DNA of 62,763 bases, counting the filler, from Coriobacteriales bacterium (GTDB lineage: Bacteria > Actinomycetota > Coriobacteriia > Coriobacteriales > UBA8131), in the NCBI GenBank assembly GCA_031263105.1. It is 5 parts of 5 records of this genome, joined end to end, with 100 filler letters (N's around TTAATTAATTAA, not from the genome) between each part and the next. Parts side by side here need not be neighbours in the genome. Positions count along the whole stretch, not along the records: positions 33,458 to 59,079 come from JAISGJ010000051.1; 4 more parts are not named here. One strand, written 5' to 3'. Within the stretch, counting starts at the first letter, position 1, and every line of letters begins with the position of its first letter. Shown one piece after another: positions 48,001-54,000 of the stretch. Made by a program: the position numbers.

Positions 48001-51000
48001 GTTGTTGTAGGCGCTCCAAAAGAAGTCGATGCCGCCCTTGGACATGTCGCGGAACATCTTGACGGTATGGGGGCCGGGCTTCTCGATGGCGTCAAGATGA
48101 CCCTCGGGGAGGCCCCAGACGGCCTCGGAGTAACGCCGGTGCTGCGGGTTGGCGACCACGAGGTCCGCAGGCAGGCGGTGGGAGAAGGTCCCGACCTCGC
48201 GGGCGGTCCCGCAGGCGCTGGGCTGGCCGGTCAGTGAGAAGGCCCCGCTGCCGGGCCTGGCGTACTTGCCCGAGAGGAGGTGGACGTTGTAGATGTTGTG
48301 GTTCATCCACGTTCCTCGGTTGTGCTGGTTGACCCCCATGGTCCAAAGCGAGAACACCTTGAGCTCGGGGGCGGCGAAGAGCTGTGCCAGCTCCTCAAGG
48401 TCGGCGACCGGCACGCCGGAGAGCTCGGAGGTGTGCTCGAAGGTGTAGGGTGCGAGCATCGCCGCGAACTCCTCGAAGGTGATCCCGTGCACGTCGTTGA
48501 CCTTCTGGCCGACGTCGGAGGCGTCGTAGCCGTCCTCGAAGGCGTCTCCGAGGCCTTCCTGGCCGGCCTTGAACTGGAGGTGGTCGCGCACGAAGGCCTC
48601 GTCGTAGAGCCTGTTGGAAACGAGGTGGTTAGCGATGCAGTTCGCGATGGCAAGGTCGGTGCCGGGACGGAAGAGCAGCACCTTGTCGGCGGTCTTCGAG
48701 GTCTCGGTCCTCAAGGTGCCAAGGTCGTAGTGCCTGACCTGCGCGTCACCTTGCTGGCGGGCCTTCAGACGGGAGTAGAGCACCGGGTGCGCCTCGGCCA
48801 TGTTGGCGCCCCAGGTTATGAAGACGTCGGCATGGTCGAGGTCGGAGTAGCAGTTCGCCGGCTCGTCGGTCTGGAACACGTTCATGAAGGCGACCACGGC
48901 GCTCGCCATGCAGAGGCGGGCGTTGGGGTCGATGTTGTTGGAGAGCAGGCCGGCCTTCCAGAACTTGGCGAGCACGTAGCCCTCGGTGACGGGCTGCTGG
49001 CCCGAGCCCCAGAACGCAAGGCGCGACTTGTCGGCCTTCCAGGTGTCCCGGAGCCTTTGCGCGACGAGCTCGAGCGCCTCGTCCCACTCGGCCTCCCGCA
49101 GGCCTCCCTCGCTCCCTTTGGTGGAGGCGTCGTCGCGGATAAGCGGCTTGGTCAGGCGGTCCTTGCCGTACAGGAGCCCTGCCAGGTAATAGCCCTTGAT
49201 GCAGTTGACGCCCTTGTTCGACTGGTTGTCCGGGTCGCCCTTGACCTCGACGACCACGCCGTCCTTCACGCCGACCAGGACGCCGCAGCCGACGCCGCAG
49301 TAGCGGCATACCGCGCTGTACGTGACGGCCTCCTCTGCCTGCTTGGGAGCGCAGGCGACGAGCTGCGACAGCGTGCCTGCGGCGGCGGCGGACGCAAAGG
49401 CGACGGCGGAGGCCTTGACGAACTGCCTTCTCGATACTTCCATGGTCATGTCCCTTTCTTCTCTGACGCGTGCTGCGGTGCGCCCTCGGGCACGCTCTGT
49501 GGCGCACTCTCTGGTGCGCTCTGCGGCGCAGGCGGCGGCGCGTTCTGCGGCGGGCCTATCCTGATGGCGGGGGCGGGGTCGCCCACCACGCAGCGCTCCA
49601 CGCAGAGCCCGCAGCCGACGCACTGTTCCTCGTCTATGACAGGCGCGAAGAGCACGTGGGTGCTGTCGCCTGCGCGGGGCCTGAGCTCGATGTCTATCGC
49701 CCGGTTGATCAGCGGGCAGCTGCGATAGCACACCTCGCAGCGGATGCCGCCGTCGATGGCGATGCAGAGCTCCTCGTCGATGACGGCGGTCCCCATCCGC
49801 ACGTCCGTGCGCACACCGACGTCCCGCAGGGCGCCGGTGGGGCATGCCCCCACGCAGGGGAAGCCCTCGCAGAGCCGACAGGCCTGCTCCCGCGCGTCGA
49901 TCACCGGGGTACCGGCGGCGGGGCCGACCGCAAAGGGGGCGCTGCGGACCGCCACGTAGGGGCAGGCCTCGATGCACTTCCCACAGCCGATGCAGCGGGC
50001 AAGGAAGTCCTCCTCGCCCTGTGCGCCGGGCGGGCGCAGGAGGAAGCTGGGTGCCTTGGCAAAGCCATAGAGCACCTGGCCTCCCAGCAGCCCGGCGAAG
50101 AAGACCGCGATCCCTTTGGCTAGAAGCGTACCCATGCGCCTGATGGTAGCGGGGCCTGAGCGCCCCGCCAATCAGGGCAAATCCGCACGTAGGTGGAAAA
50201 CCCCTCTCCCTCGCAAGGGGTTTCCCCTGCGCGACAGGGCCGGCAACGAGCCGCGTTACCGTACACGCCCCCACTGTCATCCCGAGCCCCACTGTCATCC
50301 CGAGCCTGCCGAGGGATCCTCGGCCGCGCAAGCGGTCGACTGCGGGTCAAGAGGCCCCCTGGCCTGCCGTTGGACACTGCGTGTCCAAGGATTCCTCGGC
50401 GGGGCTCGGAATGACAGTGGAGCGGGAACTGTAACCAAGCCGTAACCGAGCCGCAGGTGGGGCCGCGCAGCAGGGCCGCAAGAGCTCGAAAGAGTACCAT
50501 TGTTGTAGTACAATATCTCCCGAAGGCCGTTCGCGACCGCAGACGGTCGTCACCGAGCGAAAGGCACGACCCCGCGTGTTCAGCCCCTTCATCGTGTGGT
50601 ACCTCTTCCTGGCCGGCGTCGGCAGCGGCGCCTTCCTCGTCGCGGTTGCCACGATGGTCGGGCATCGTCGCAGGAGCCGTGTGCACACGAACGTGCACGC
50701 GCATGCAGCCGCCTCGGACATGCCGCAGGGCTCCGGCATCCGTTCCCGTCGTCCCCGCTTCGGCCTTGAGCTCCGTCAGGGCCGTTACCCCTCGGCCAGC
50801 CACATCCGCTCGACCACCGCGCTGGCCACCTCCGCGCTTGCCACCGTCGCGGCGACGCTCTGCCTGCTCGCCGACTTCGGCGACCCTCTCGTCGCCTGGC
50901 GCGTCGTCCTCACGCCGCTCGCGTCCATCACCTCCTTCGGCGCCGTCGTCGTCATCTCCTTCACGGCCCTCGCCGCCCTGGCGGCCCTCACCGCGCTGCT

Positions 51001-54000
51001 GCAGTTCCGTCTCCCCCACTGGCTCTTCGCCACACTGCACGTGCTCGGTGCGCTGGCGGCCCTCGGCACCATGCTCTACGCCGGCTTCCTGCTTGCGGCC
51101 ATCGTCTCGGTCGACCTGTGGCACACCTGGCTCGTCCCGCTGCTCTTCTCGGTCTCCTCGCTCACCTGCGGCCTCGCTGCCACGCTCTTCGCCGAGGCCC
51201 TCTATCTCGGCGTGCGCACCCCCGGCTTCGTCTTCCGCTGGCACACGCTCCTTGCCCTCGGGCTCATCGAGGCCGCTGCCCTCGCGGCGCTCCTCGCCGA
51301 CCGGGCCGCCTTCTCCCCTACCGCGCTGGCCTCGGTCGACCTCCTCCTGCTTGGGGAGAGGTCCGCGCCCTTCTGGCTCGGCATCGTCTCGATCGGCCTT
51401 GCCCTCCCGGTCCTCGCGCACCTCCTGTTCCGCTTCCTCCCCTTGGAGGCCCTTATCCTCGTCAGCGCCGTCTGCGTTCTCGTCGGCGGCTTCTATATCC
51501 GCCACTGCGTCGTCAACGCCGGCCTTCTGACGCCCTTGTTCCCTGTCACGTGACCGAGGGCCGTTGCCGAAAGGGCCCGCAGGCGCGGCCCCCGGCCCGC
51601 AAGGCCCGGCCCAGGCAGAACGACCGAACGACCGAAAGGACATCATGCAGCCTCTCTCCGTCCCCCTCTCCATCGACAGCAGCAGCGGCATCCCGCTGTG
51701 GCTCCAGCTGCGCAACCGGCTCATATACCTCATCACCTCCGGGCACTTCCGCAAAGGCGACCGCCTGCCCACCGTGCGCAACCTCGCTGTGGAGCTCGGC
51801 ATCAACTTCAACACGGTGAGCAAGGTCTACCGCGACATCGAGCGCGACGGCTACATCGCCTCGCGCCAAGGCGCCGGGACCTTCGTCTCAGACGAATACA
51901 CCCGCCGCGAGGGGGTGGCCGTCACGGAGACCGACCTGGTCATCGACGAGTTCATCCGTGAATGCCTCGAGATCGGCGTGCCCAAAGACGATATCGCCGG
52001 CCTCGTGATAGAGCGCCTCATGTTGACGGAAGAGACAAGGAGCCCCGATGCCCAAGAAGAGAACGGCGACGCAGGATACGCAGCACCAACCGCATCCGCA
52101 GCCCGCAGAGAGGCGTCCCTCGGTCGCAGGCACTGAGCTCGAACCCAACGAGACGACCCGCATAGGGGTCTTCGTCTTCGCGCTCGTGATGTTCGCCTTG
52201 GGCTTCGCGGCCGTGTTCGCAGCGACCGTATGGTGGCTCCACCCCCTCACCATCGTCGCCTCCCTCGCCGCAGGCCTGCTCGTCGCCTCCTGCGTCCGCA
52301 TCGCGCCTCAATGGGAGCGCGTCGCCGTGCTGCGCCTGGGCCGCTTCAACCGCATAGCAGGCCCCGGCCTCTATGTGCTCGTCCCCCTCTTCGAGTACAC
52401 GGCCATCCACGTCGACCAGCGCATCATGACCTCCTCGTTCTCCGCTGAGGCGGCGCTGACCGCCGACCTCGTCCCCGTCGACGTCGACGCCATCCTCTTC
52501 TGGATGGTCTGGGACGCGGAGCGCGCCTGCCTCGAGGTGAAGAACTATCCCAAGGCCGTGCTCTGGAGCGCCCAGACGGCGCTGCGCGACGCCCTCGGCC
52601 AGACCGACCTCGAGGAGCTCTCCATCCGCCGCCGCCAGATCGACCACGAGCTTTCCGCCACGCTCGCCAAGAAGTGCGAGGACTGGGGCATCACCGTGCT
52701 CTCCGTCGAGATCCGCGACATCATGGTGCCCCACGAGCTGCAGGACGCGCTCTCCAAGGAGGCACAGGCCGGCCGCGAGCGCGACGCCCGCATCATCATC
52801 GCCGAGGTGGAGAAGGAGATCTCGGAACTCTTCGTCGAGGCTGCCAACATCTACGGGGCCAACCCCGTCGCCTTGCAGCTGCGTGCCATGAACCTCGCCT
52901 ACGAGGGCGCCAAGGACGGCAAGGGCATGCTGCTCATGCCCTCCGTCCTCGCCGACAGCTTCGACCTCAAGAAGCTCCTTGCCGAGGACTGAGCGCACCG
53001 CCTCGCCACGCTGCCGCATCGACAGAATCGCATCGCGTCCCCCCTCATAGAGTCAGTCCCTTGCCAAAAAGGCCGTGCACGACGAAACGGACGATGGCGA
53101 CTCCATATTGTACTACTCTCCTAGTACAATCATCCTACAGATAGGATAGTGCATTCTCTGATTGTATCAGTATAATAGTACAAAGATACAATTGACGAGG
53201 CCTGACGGAGGGAAAGGAGGAGGCTTTGGACACAACGGGCGCAGAGGGAGCGACCTGTGCCCACGCATGCTGGTCAGGGTGAGAGTGCAACGAATAAGGA
53301 GGAAGAAGATGCCGGATGAATCGACACGTACCACGCGCCTGAGCAGGCGCAACTTCGTGGCTGCCATGGCTGCCGCCGCCGGAGCCGCCGCCCTTGCGGG
53401 CAGCTTCGCTGGCTGTGCGCCCAAGCCGGAGGACGGCGGCAGCGCCGAGATGCCCCCGGCGCCCGCAACGCCGCCCGAGGAGCAGGTGTACCAAGGGGTC
53501 TGCCGGGCCAACTGTTCGGGCGGATGCCGCATGAACGTCCATGTGCGCGAAGGCAAGGTCGTCAAGACCTCGGCCATCCACAACGAGGACCCCCGCGAGG
53601 ACCGCATCTGCCAGCGCGGACTCACGCATGCACAGCGTGTCTACGCCCCCGAGCGCATCCAGTACCCGATGCGCCGCAAGGAAGGCACCGCCCGTGGCGC
53701 AGGCGAGTGGGAGCGCATCACCTGGGACGAGGCGGTCACCTACATAACGGACAAGTGGAAGGGCTATATCGAGGAGTTCGGGCCCAGCTCCGTCGCCTAC
53801 ACCTTCGGGGCCGGCACCTATGCGGCCAACCAGTACATCTACATGCGCCTGTTCAACATGATCGGCGGCACACAGTTCGAGCAGCTGTACGACATGGCCG
53901 GCCTCAACATGTGCCGCGACATCACGGGACGCGGCCTGTACCTGCATGGCAACGACTACAACGACATCGTCAACTGCAAGTACTTCTTCAACTGGGGCTG

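Follow-up and report, generated by a model that had tools for sequence, protein, structure and literature searches.

Whether a small membrane cassette of a Coriobacteriales bacterium serves reductases throughout the genome or only the operon beside it is the question raised by this locus. In the 62,763-nucleotide (nt) stretch of DNA analyzed here (the window), a Pfam scan identified three co-directional genes on the + strand, at positions 50576 to 52992, that encode an NrfD-like protein, a YtrA-type GntR regulator, and a stomatin. The survey's finding was that five such triads, plus one pair without NrfD, are dispersed in the assembly as orphan, free-standing quinol dehydrogenase anchors with their own regulator, shared among anchor-less reductases. 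This observation was partly confirmed and its interpretation partly supported: the cassette is real, has its own GntR, and recurs as five triads (C26, C49, C60, C97, and C177) and one GntR-Band_7 pair without NrfD (C145), but the terms orphan, free-standing, and shared did not hold. With moderate confidence, the cassette is better described as a regulatory and membrane module of the adjacent reductase operon. The other copies in the assembly are 30 to 32% (NrfD), 34 to 45% (GntR), and 40 to 53% (Band_7) identical to that of the window. The same abundant repeat element is present on all six cassette contigs, which argues that the copies belong to one organism; its density is alike in low- and high-GC contigs.

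The cassette and the adjacent reductase operon

The gene order on the + strand of the window is NrfD, GntR, stomatin, molybdoenzyme (Mo) catalytic subunit, FeS subunit, and TorD. The NrfD/PsrC-type membrane subunit (50576 to 51553, +; 325 amino acids [aa]) matches PF03916 with 65.7 bits (cutoff, 25.8) and has eight long helices, the first of which is followed by an insert rich in Arg and His. Comparison with the operon NrfDs by hhalign gave a probability of 99.4%; a sequence search with its profile matched no solved chain with an E value of up to 1. The best structural matches of its AF2 model (pLDDT, 89.4) are ActC of ACIII (TMq, 0.65 to 0.71) and PsrC with bound menaquinone (TMt, 0.71), so that the predicted NrfD/PsrC fold bears out the earlier assignment as a quinol-type NrfD subunit. 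The label "short" given to the five cassette copies (298, 329, 325, 323, and 325 aa) is misleading because ∼300 aa and eight helices are the canonical PsrC/NrfD size; it is the operon copies that are the long, extended form. In a tree of 45 NrfDs, obtained by quick search only and with long branches flagged, a short clade (29 rows) that takes in the five cassette copies and those of C102 and C248 in the same assembly is separated, at an SH-aLRT value of 100, from a long clade (16 rows).

The regulator gene (51645 to 52136, +; 163 aa; PF00392, 51.1 bits) lies in a frame that is open from a TTG at 51564, its likely start being the ATG at 51645 with an AAAGGA ribosome site. By its sequence, the product is a YtrA-type GntR, with a winged helix and a short dimerization tail and without an effector domain. 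Its profile has full-length matches to solved GntRs of 113 to 134 aa, and in NCBIfam it scores best against the Rv1152 family, under that model's cutoff. The stomatin-type SPFH protein (52048 to 52992, +; 314 aa from the ATG at 52048; PF01145 Band_7, 110.7 bits) has an uncertain true start, as that ATG would overlap the GntR gene by 89 nt. Besides the SPFH domain, the protein has an N-terminal tail that is basic, a hydrophobic hairpin, and a C-terminal helix, and positions 61 to 290 of the profile match solved stomatin 16-mer entries (E value, 3e-58), which makes the membrane scaffold proposed earlier a plausible role.

Downstream, the bis-MGD catalytic subunit (53310 to 55783, +; Pfam Molybdopterin, Molydop_binding, and Molybdop_Fe4S4) starts at an ATG that comes after a AAGGAGGA site. 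Its sequence includes SRRNFV, a twin-arginine motif, and FAGC, which resembles a lipobox; the protein is predicted to be Tat exported, and falls in the DMSO-reductase family of NCBIfam, under every equivalog cutoff. The four-cluster, NrfC/PsrB-like FeS subunit (55796 to 56418, +; Pfam Fer4_11; NCBIfam DsrO, ArrB, and TtrB-like) ends in a tail of the form ...GDIDDPASE...GTGPNVYYVTK, a type that normally accompanies a long NrfD and is otherwise paired with a short one only in C102 and perhaps C248. The TorD/DmsD-family maturation chaperone (56424 to 57131, +; Pfam Nitrate_red_del; NCBIfam DMSO_red_II_cha and TorD) is in a frame open from 56223, with a likely start at the ATG at 56424, just past the FeS stop codon.

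Genomic context of the triad and of the GntR-stomatin pair

Four of the five triads in the assembly (C177, C49, C60, and C97) directly adjoin a Mo-FeS operon, so they are not orphans. At C49, an anchor-less Mo-FeS-TorD operon and the triad are divergently oriented; at C60, it is followed by Mo-FeS-long NrfD; and at C97, the short NrfD gene is followed by an inserted toxin-antitoxin pair and Mo-FeS-long NrfD-TorD, with GntR-stomatin divergent. No reductase is adjacent to the C26 triad, which lies between ispH and a DUF2975 gene with the contig end 419 bp beyond, or to the C145 pair, which has an RsgA gene on one side and an integrase gene on the other.

The same association was found in other genomes. 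Among the best 80 loci with relatives of the stomatin, 21, all from other Coriobacteriia, encode a short NrfD; in every one, GntR adjoins the stomatin and the triad lies beside a Mo-FeS operon. In nine of the 21, the short NrfD holds the operon's anchor position: it follows the FeS or TorD gene like an ordinary anchor in L007, L009, L011, and L014 to L018, and in L012 it is just 3' of the FeS gene, far from the GntR-stomatin pair. In the NrfD tree, the C49 copy groups (support, 99) with L074 and with operon copies from L015 to L018, and that of C26 pairs (100) with L014, where the order is Mo-FeS-NrfD-GntR-stomatin. The triad keeps its order in all arrangements, with Mo-FeS upstream of it, downstream of it, or divergent. 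In the Mo tree, the catalytic subunits linked to a cassette are spread over four or more clades; thus, the module is not tied to one enzyme type.

The conserved core, however, is the GntR-stomatin pair, which outside Coriobacteriia is widespread and unlinked to molybdoenzymes. Of 59 related loci of other phyla, 51 contain the pair alone among unrelated neighbors; a Pfam scan of 44 neighbor proteins from 20 loci detected aquaporin, PEMT, hydrolases, RNase E, and others but no NrfD, Mo family, or NfeD. The earlier claim of a cassette largely confined to Coriobacteriales applies to the full triad, which in the loci surveyed is almost exclusive to Coriobacteriia records, but not to the GntR-stomatin core of many phyla. 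A palindrome, TTGTACTA-N6-TAGTACAA, occurs in 35 of 50 pair-only loci in the 130 nt preceding GntR when up to 2 mismatches are allowed. On these sequence grounds, the GntR and stomatin genes, in that order, form a bicistronic unit of ancient origin whose promoter is overlain by a conserved palindrome in many phyla.

Candidate operators and the role of the short NrfD

Three copies of this palindrome flank the window cassette. Candidate operator O1 (GAGTACCA-N6-TAGTACAA; 50492 to 50513; 3 mismatches) begins 84 nt before the NrfD start and contains the -10 hexamer of a predicted sigma-70-like promoter (TCGAAA-17-TACAAT; 50486 to 50514, +); promoter-like sites number 2 between 50300 and 53400, versus a mean of 0.1 in shuffles. 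O2, a perfect match (53108 to 53129), and O3 (TTGTATCA-N6-TAGTACAA; 53162 to 53183; 2 mismatches), with a perfect TATAAT in its spacer at 53171 to 53176, both lie in the 317-nt gap between the stomatin and Mo genes. The whole 2.9-Mb assembly holds only 4 matches at ≤3 mismatches (shuffles, 1 to 2), and none is near any reductase other than the one adjacent to the window cassette.

A like arrangement, built from variant half-sites, recurs at other loci. The variant CTATCATA-N6-(C/T)ATGATAC is found once by GntR and twice before Mo at C97, TGTCATA/TATGACA motifs precede both the short NrfD and Mo genes at C60, and sites precede Mo in L008 and L010 (TTGAACTA-N6-TAGTTCAA), L055 (two sites), and L007; at C49 and C26, the search gave no convincing site. 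Because the recognition-helix residues are invariant in all six GntRs of the assembly and their half-sites differ only as variants of TGTnnTA, one paralogue may act at the sites of another, which would widen the regulon.

These sites bear on the idea that the GntR-stomatin pair forms an autonomous unit for membrane stress or housekeeping without functional ties to the reductases it adjoins in Coriobacteriia. The lone pairs of other phyla, and of C145, are what this idea predicts. However, pair-type operators stand before the Mo gene in six loci (the window, C97, L007, L008, L010, and L055), and adjacency in 21 of 21 loci, with several different gene orders and Mo subunits from four or more clades, is hard to attain by chance, which makes mere hitchhiking very improbable.

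Sharing in trans, in which free-standing short NrfDs would serve anchor-less operons and the stomatin would be a scaffold, has more in its favor. PF00384 matched 49 places, against the 50 catalytic genes counted earlier, and among the 49 Mo catalytic open reading frames (ORFs) of at least 1,500 nt, HMMs placed an NrfD-family gene within 4 kb of 14 and of none of the other 35. A contig end is close to 20 of these 35 and none is near the other 15, so the earlier figure of ∼31 anchor-less reductases is fair as an upper bound. About a dozen NrfD-less Mo-FeS operons have a DmsB-like FeS tail, which is seen in cis with a short NrfD at L015 to L018, L021/L022, L074, and C49. At C60/C97-type loci the short NrfD is "spare," given that the operon has a long one. 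Finally, a relative, G006 (82% completeness), has 31 PF00384 matches versus only one or two NrfD-family genes, so that the family must rely on some sharing or on a different electron route. Against this, a particular Mo-FeS operon adjoins nearly every triad, orthologues of the short NrfD sit in ordinary anchor positions inside Mo-FeS-(TorD) operons, and the operator regulon of the window copy is local. Moreover, G006 and five other relatives (G007, G008, G011, G012, and G013) encode 12 to 31 Mo genes without any cassette, the GntR-stomatin pair is older than and independent of the reductase link, and in eight or so anchor-less operons the partners are small, ferredoxin-type proteins of a different kind, so that these enzymes may not be membrane bound. 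Sharing as the function of the cassette is therefore doubtful, and use of the spare short NrfDs by remote DmsB-type reductases is at most possible.

The short NrfD could also be a quinone- or redox-sensing membrane protein and not mainly an electron-transfer anchor. It would then, with the stomatin, control the effector-less GntR and so make reductase operons responsive to the menaquinone pool or to the assembly state of the complex. Its tightest linkage is indeed to the GntR-stomatin pair and not to any set position in Mo-FeS operons: the triad order is kept wherever Mo-FeS lies, and in 14 relatives from this family a short NrfD is found no more than ∼2 kb from 28 of 30 cassette-type stomatin genes. 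In at least eight loci it coexists with a long NrfD (reductase operons of L008, L010, L025, L032, L038, L053, and the C60/C97-type loci carry their own), and there it is not needed as the reductase anchor. YtrA-type GntRs lack a ligand domain, and the polar residues Y168, W182, S194, E232, and R309 of the short NrfD are kept in all contexts. Nevertheless, short-clade NrfDs also occur as plain Mo-FeS-NrfD anchors without GntR-stomatin (C102, G018:C4, G008:C32, G028:C50, and G029:C51), and the pairs of other phyla have no NrfD at all; a sensory role is conceivable but unlikely.

Under the preferred reading, a module of the adjacent operon, a GntR dimer would repress both the cassette promoter and the reductase promoter, so that cassette and reductase would be switched on together. 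The short NrfD, in place of the long NrfD carried by sister operons, would be the docking site of the FeS subunit at the outer face and would hand menaquinol electrons to the Mo-FeS dimer. A stomatin cage on the cytoplasmic face might surround the membrane complex, with a role in its assembly, quality control, or lateral confinement, and, as GntR lacks a ligand domain, the stomatin may relay the inducing signal. Several observations count against this reading: the window FeS subunit has the tail type of long-NrfD operons, the C26 and C145 copies have no adjacent reductase, C49 and C26 gave no convincing site, the short NrfD is spare wherever the operon has a long one, cross-talk between paralogues may occur, and the linked Mo subunits are of several clades.

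Comparison with known systems

The window operon resembles three-subunit complex iron-sulfur molybdoenzymes with an NrfD/PsrC/DmsC-type anchor, namely, PsrABC, DmsABC, and YnfFGH with DmsD, in its Tat-exported bis-MGD subunit, four-cluster FeS subunit, eight-helix PsrC-fold quinol subunit, and TorD/DmsD chaperone, and the ynfFGHI order is mirrored by Mo-FeS-NrfD-TorD in L007, L009, and L011. Unlike in PsrABC and DmsABC, the anchor gene is upstream, regulator and stomatin genes and a second promoter region separate it from Mo-FeS, and several loci have two NrfD-type genes.

YtrA-subfamily GntR repressors adjoin membrane-protein or ABC-transporter operons, as do Bacillus subtilis YtrA, Staphylococcus aureus PmtR, and Mycobacterium tuberculosis Rv1152. 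The window regulator is likewise a short, effector-less GntR in an operon that it presumably represses, with a palindrome over the promoter. It differs in its partner, a stomatin rather than an ABC transporter, in its scores (69 bits against a cutoff of 170 for the Rv1152 model and 49 against 200 for PmtR), and in that the Coriobacteriia GntR also fronts a respiratory reductase operon.

In prokaryotic stomatin operons such as PH1511/PH1510, the stomatin gene is paired with one for NfeD, and known SPFH cages include HflK/C-FtsH, QmcA, and human stomatin 16-mers; stomatin cages reportedly enclose membrane proteins. The cassette stomatin shares the hairpin, SPFH domain, and C-terminal helix, and its profile matches 9z7u, 9wmj, 9wkz, 9oh9, PH stomatin (3bk6), and QmcA (8z5g); unlike PH1511, it is partnered with a transcription factor instead of an NfeD protease. 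A link between SPFH proteins and respiration has been described for HflK/C and aerobic respiration (PMC12005517).

Each Eggerthellaceae genome encodes Mo and flavin reductases by the tens, many of them Tat exported and some with FeS and membrane-anchor partners, usually with a neighboring regulator each (Little et al., bioRxiv 10.1101/2022.12.26.521950; Maini Rekdal et al., PMC7028382). The passages of these accounts on anchors, NrfD, GntR, stomatin, and Band 7 do not include a GntR-stomatin module, and the GntR-stomatin-reductase module looks undescribed. The arsenals, as those passages present them, resemble the present one in their many reductases with adjacent regulators and differ in that the regulators there are transmembrane LuxR-type proteins.

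The cassette and its neighborhood on contig C177

Within the assembly (250 contigs, 86% complete, 6.5% contamination), the cassette lies on contig C177 (25.6 kb, window 33458 to 59079), where its three plus-strand genes all encode proteins that exceed the Pfam cut-offs. These are an NrfD-family membrane protein (50576 to 51553; PF03916, 65.7 bits against a cut-off of 25.8), a short GntR regulator (Pfam GntR, 51.1 bits), the frame of which is open from 51564 and likely starts at the ATG at 51645 behind AAAGGA, and a Band_7/SPFH protein, or stomatin (52048 to 52992; PF01145, 110.7 bits). 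On the same strand follow the catalytic subunit of a bis-MGD molybdoenzyme (Mo), starting at the ATG at 53310 behind AAGGAGGA, a four-cluster iron-sulfur subunit (FeS; 55796 to 56418) and a TorD-family chaperone (about 56424 to 57131). With its bis-MGD and Fe4S4 domains, Tat signal, four-cluster FeS subunit and chaperone, this operon encodes a complex iron-sulfur molybdoenzyme of the DMSO reductase family; none of its genes reached an NCBIfam equivalog cut-off. It is without the extended, long NrfD that its sister operons in the Mo tree possess. At the start of the Mo subunit (53310 to 53400), a twin-arginine motif, SRRNFV, is followed by a lipobox-like FAGC, and the protein may be a Tat-exported lipoprotein; in that case, "anchor-less" reductases could be tethered to the monoderm membrane without any NrfD. 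Upstream of the cassette and divergent from it lies a NapA-like/NapD/NapH-like set (45675 to 50331, minus strand), and the same contig carries an NrfA-like cytochrome c552 (41360 to 42856, minus), a MocR-type GntR-aminotransferase (43285 to 44814, plus) and a LuxR-type response regulator (44992 to 45678, plus). Convergent with the TorD gene is a membrane protein with about 5 to 6 hydrophobic segments (57257 to 58351, minus), which matched only the NCBIfam "permease prefix domain 1."

The short NrfD was modeled by AF2 with eight long helices (pLDDT 89.4, pTM 0.88), that is, with the NrfD/PsrC fold. Only five Foldseek matches were obtained at E values up to 0.001, namely, ActC of alternative complex III (four entries) and PsrC with bound menaquinone (2vpw_C); by sequence, the short-NrfD profile matched no PDB entry at E values up to 1. 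All five cassette NrfDs in the assembly exceed the PF03916 cut-off, the copy on C97 only as the sum of two pieces. Short and long operon NrfDs align with each other (hhalign probability of 99.4%, 274 columns aligned). Relative to the short form in this profile alignment, long NrfDs are extended by about 50 residues at the N terminus and about 100 at the C terminus. In a quick tree with flagged long branches, the two forms separate into clades with a support of 100, and cassette copies are mixed among operon-embedded ones. Short-clade NrfDs also occur without GntR and stomatin, in plain Mo-FeS-NrfD operons (contig C102 of this assembly; G018:C4, G008:C32, G028:C50 and G029:C51 in same-family genomes). 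The FeS gene lies 4 kb downstream of the window NrfD, and elsewhere short-clade copies adjoin FeS genes. Polar residues conserved among the short NrfDs are Y168, W182, S194, E232 and R309; PMC13059093 deals with residues important for NrfD/PsrC function, including experimentally tested ones.

The GntR protein, with a conserved length of about 125 to 130 aa, consists of an N-terminal winged helix followed by only about 50 C-terminal residues and contains no domain for effector binding, which is the architecture of the YtrA subfamily. Its profile matches end to end a set of solved short GntRs of 113 to 134 aa (3neu, 4ham, 4r1h, 3by6, 6sbs, 3ic7, 3tqn and 2du9), which we take to be YtrA-type regulators; the best NCBIfam matches, Rv1152 and PmtR, fall far under their cut-offs. 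In the third protein, two hydrophobic segments precede the SPFH domain, a helical region follows it at the C terminus, and the profile matches stomatin with an E value of 3e-58 (positions 61 to 290) and HflK with 1e-15, placing it in the stomatin (slipin) branch. PADLOC assigned no family to the three cassette proteins or to one foreign stomatin.

Copies in the assembly and the question of a shared anchor

Assembly-wide searches, including HMMs made from the cassette paralogues themselves, and Pfam annotation of the six loci recovered the same set as the initial survey, namely, five triads (C26, C49, C60, C97 and C177) and one GntR-stomatin pair (C145), and the recomputed paralogue identities and lengths agree as well; the repeated cassette is thus real. 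A seventh, ordinary stomatin without a GntR is found on C48. The description of the cassettes as orphans did not hold, since four of the five triads adjoin a Mo-FeS operon. On C177, the triad is followed by Mo-FeS-TorD; on C49, it is divergent from Mo-FeS-TorD; on C60, it precedes Mo-FeS-long NrfD; and on C97, the short NrfD is followed by an inserted toxin-antitoxin pair and Mo-FeS-long NrfD-TorD, with GntR-stomatin divergent. The inserted pair, Gp49 (HigB-like)/HTH_3, is on the opposite strand (6012 to 7127 of the C97 locus, L004). No reductase adjoins the triad on C26, which sits between ispH and a gene for a DUF2975 protein close to the contig end, or the pair on C145. In the C26 locus (L001), the DUF2975 membrane protein follows the triad and ispH (LytB) is divergent (420 to 998 and 3800 to 4699), with 419 bp remaining to the contig end. 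The Mo subunits linked to the cassette are spread over at least four clades of a FastTree phylogeny (supports not inspected), so that no single Mo enzyme clade owns it.

The six copies are unlikely to be accounted for by a bin that contains two organisms. An abundant repeat element with nested stem-loops (GTTGGACACTGCGTGTCCAA, 145 occurrences, and GGAATGACAGTGG, 456 occurrences, in the 2.9-Mb assembly) is carried by 145 of the 198 contigs measuring 5 kb or more, its density being equal whether the GC content of a contig is low or high, and by all six cassette contigs (for example, at window 50300 to 50425, L001 about 3476 to 3520, L003 about 11900 to 12010 and L002 10692 to 10960). Because this repeat is shared by the six contigs and relatives hold 0 to 7 cassette-type stomatin genes, the multiplicity is not an artifact of a mixed bin. 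On C49, a tandem array of this repeat element is in frame with the ORF of the short NrfD, where it translates as "GMTVGA" repeats.

The survey's reading had been that the short NrfDs are free-standing anchors pooled among some 31 anchor-less reductases. As an upper bound, that number is roughly right: 35 of the 49 full-size Mo ORFs have no NrfD-family gene within 4 kb, 20 of these 35 being near a contig end. The operons in question are heterogeneous in their FeS partners. Across the assembly, FeS C-terminal tails are of three types: NrfC/PsrB-like (...GDLDDP.SEVS...GT.PSVYYL), mostly found with long NrfDs and including the window FeS; DmsB-like (...T.PSL.I...), found in Mo-FeS-TorD operons and, in other genomes, in cis with a short NrfD; and short ferredoxins ending around CVHHCQ, such small ferredoxin-like partners accounting for about eight cases. 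A C-terminal tail anchor on the FeS subunit does not explain the anchor-less operons, as a hydrophobic C-terminal segment was detected in only 1 of 52 FeS ORFs (on C33). A same-family genome (G006, 82% complete) has 31 PF00384 matches but no cassette and just two NrfD-family matches, of which one is clear and the other weak; most reductases of that lineage must therefore receive electrons otherwise than via an adjacently encoded NrfD. A shared pool of anchors draws some appeal from the DmsB-type Mo-FeS-TorD operons, which elsewhere pair with short NrfDs in cis and here mostly are without one, but with four of five triads adjoining a reductase operon of their own, this attractive reading is largely wrong as proposed and quite improbable overall, and on present evidence it should be dropped.

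Related loci and a candidate operator

To place the cassette in a wider context, the stomatin alignment was scanned against one genome per species, yielding 522 relatives, the best 80 of which were kept and annotated with our own HMMs. Loci selected in this way under-sample short NrfDs that lack a stomatin, a bias partly corrected within the family. Of these best 80 loci, 21 include a short NrfD; each of the 21 also has a Mo gene and a GntR next to its stomatin. Nineteen are labeled Coriobacteriia, one "Actinomycetes bacterium" and one Akkermansia. The last (L066, 6431 bases, filed under an Akkermansia muciniphila isolate) reads NrfD-GntR-stomatin-Mo, and in the NrfD tree it groups with the Eggerthellaceae locus L038; mis-binning of this contig is probable. 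The genes are arranged in several orders: NrfD-GntR-stomatin-Mo-FeS-long NrfD (L008, L010, L025, L032, L038 and L053), NrfD-GntR-stomatin...Mo-FeS-TorD (L021 and L022), Mo-FeS-TorD-NrfD-GntR-stomatin (L015 to L018), Mo-FeS-NrfD-TorD-GntR-stomatin (L007 and L011), GntR-stomatin-Mo-FeS-NrfD-TorD (L009), Mo-FeS-NrfD-GntR-stomatin (L014) and divergent arrangements (L012, L013, L030 and L074). Thus, the usual position of the anchor gene is often taken by the short NrfD. Cultured carriers include Adlercreutzia rubneri (L015), Senegalimassilia anaerobia (L022), Slackia faecicanis (L025), Eggerthella sinensis (L032) and Parvibacter caecicola (L053). Among 34 species genomes of the family, cassette-type stomatins were found in 15; in the 14 relatives among these, a short NrfD lies within about 2 kb of 28 of the 30 cassette-type stomatin genes. 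Several family members have many Mo genes yet no cassette (31 in G006; 12 to 14 each in G007, G008 and G011 to G013). A sensor function of the short NrfD would account both for the loci with two NrfD types and for a GntR that has no effector domain; we consider it unlikely.

The remaining 59 of the best 80 loci come from Acidobacteriota, Gemmatimonadota, Chloroflexota, Planctomycetota and others. GntR is directly upstream of the stomatin in 51 of them and at 528 nt in L034; two loci are cut, and five have no detectable GntR. A Mo gene is nearby in only two, L055 and L082. In L055 (225 to 2343, a Negativicutes contig), the stomatin is followed by two candidate operators and then Mo; in L082 (4926 to 10861, Chloroflexi), a divergent FeS-Mo pair lies 1.5 kb from GntR-stomatin. 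A Pfam scan of 44 proteins flanking the pair in 20 such loci revealed unrelated functions and no NrfD or molybdopterin family. What is conserved at the core is therefore a GntR-stomatin bicistron that stands on its own.

The first clue to an operator was an AT-rich palindrome upstream of the window NrfD. The 9-mer GTAGTACAA was counted 21 times in 1.31 Mb of sequence; 17 of these occurrences closely precede GntR at pair-only loci, and two are in the window. In 35 of 50 pair-only loci, the 130 nt ahead of GntR contain the full palindrome, TTGTACTA-N6-TAGTACAA, with two mismatches at most. Candidate operators were defined by conservation and position only. Three such sites are present in the window: O1 (50492 to 50513, three mismatches) overlaps the -10 element of the sole predicted plus-strand promoter, and O2 (53108 to 53129, a perfect match) and O3 (53162 to 53183, two mismatches, enclosing TATAAT) are situated in the 317 nt between the stomatin and Mo genes. 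Only four sites with at most three mismatches exist in the 2.9-Mb assembly, three of them being O1 to O3 (shuffled sequence contains one or two), and none is near another reductase. The paralogous cassettes share the layout with variant half-sites: C97 has a single site near GntR and a further two ahead of Mo; C60 has TGTCATA/TATGACA motifs ahead of the short NrfD and of Mo; and the foreign loci L008 and L010 have TTGAACTA-N6-TAGTTCAA before Mo. Palindrome scans of C49 and C26 detected no operator. Whereas the half-sites vary, the recognition helix is invariant, so cross-talk between paralogues is possible. Pure hitch-hiking of the cassette beside reductase genes conflicts with the presence of operators ahead of Mo genes, and we regard it as very improbable. 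The positions of these sites are the strongest evidence for local regulation of both the cassette and the adjacent reductase by GntR, which is predicted to bind them. The pair itself, with a palindrome conserved in at least five phyla and apart from reductases, looks like an undescribed regulatory unit.

A probable local module and its relation to known systems

The remaining picture is a repressor-stomatin unit and a PsrC-like subunit captured jointly by individual reductase operons. The reading we favor, and judge probable, is a local repressor/anchor/stomatin module serving the adjacent reductase. A GntR dimer on O1 and on O2/O3 would repress the cassette and the Mo-FeS-TorD operon; on a signal, both would be expressed, the short NrfD would act as the quinol-oxidizing subunit for the exported Mo-FeS dimer, and the stomatin would assemble around the complex on the cytoplasmic face. 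Loci with both NrfD types, the tail type of the window FeS, the two copies without a reductase and the combination of an invariant recognition helix with varying half-sites do not fit this model. A broader reading, which we hold as rather doubtful, joins these elements. GntR-stomatin would be a feedback circuit of ancient origin, complete in itself and with an operator conserved from Acidobacteriota to Actinomycetota; within this circuit, a membrane stomatin cage would signal to the effector-less repressor. Coriobacteriia would have captured this circuit, together with the PsrC-like quinol subunit, many times, each respiratory molybdoenzyme being switched on and caged as a unit, and "spare" short NrfDs, at loci that also have a long one, could feed remote DmsB-type reductases.

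Large reductase arsenals with adjacent regulators are described for Eggerthellaceae in part of bioRxiv 10.1101/2022.12.26.521950, and FeS and membrane-anchor partners of Eggerthella lenta dehydroxylases are treated in a section of PMC7028382. Such arsenals in Eggerthellaceae-like gut bacteria are known; the membrane wiring and regulation of each enzyme mostly are not. The cassette offers testable handles: the predicted operator ties a small repressor to one reductase operon, the short PsrC-like anchors form a class distinct from the long ones, and a stomatin is co-encoded with a respiratory complex, which would be a defined candidate client for an SPFH protein, the roles of this family in bacteria being, to our knowledge, largely unknown. 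Literature searches on the combinations NrfD/stomatin/GntR, SPFH/YtrA and SPFH/GntR found no paper on the pair or the cassette. Among SPFH proteins, HflK/C are linked to respiration in part of PMC12005517; the cassette stomatin profile is far closer to solved stomatin cages, PH stomatin and QmcA than to HflK/C. No NfeD family was detected among the scanned neighbors in the loci of this assembly or among the 44 neighbors from 20 foreign loci. Thus, whereas the usual operon partner of a stomatin is NfeD, the partner here is a GntR regulator.
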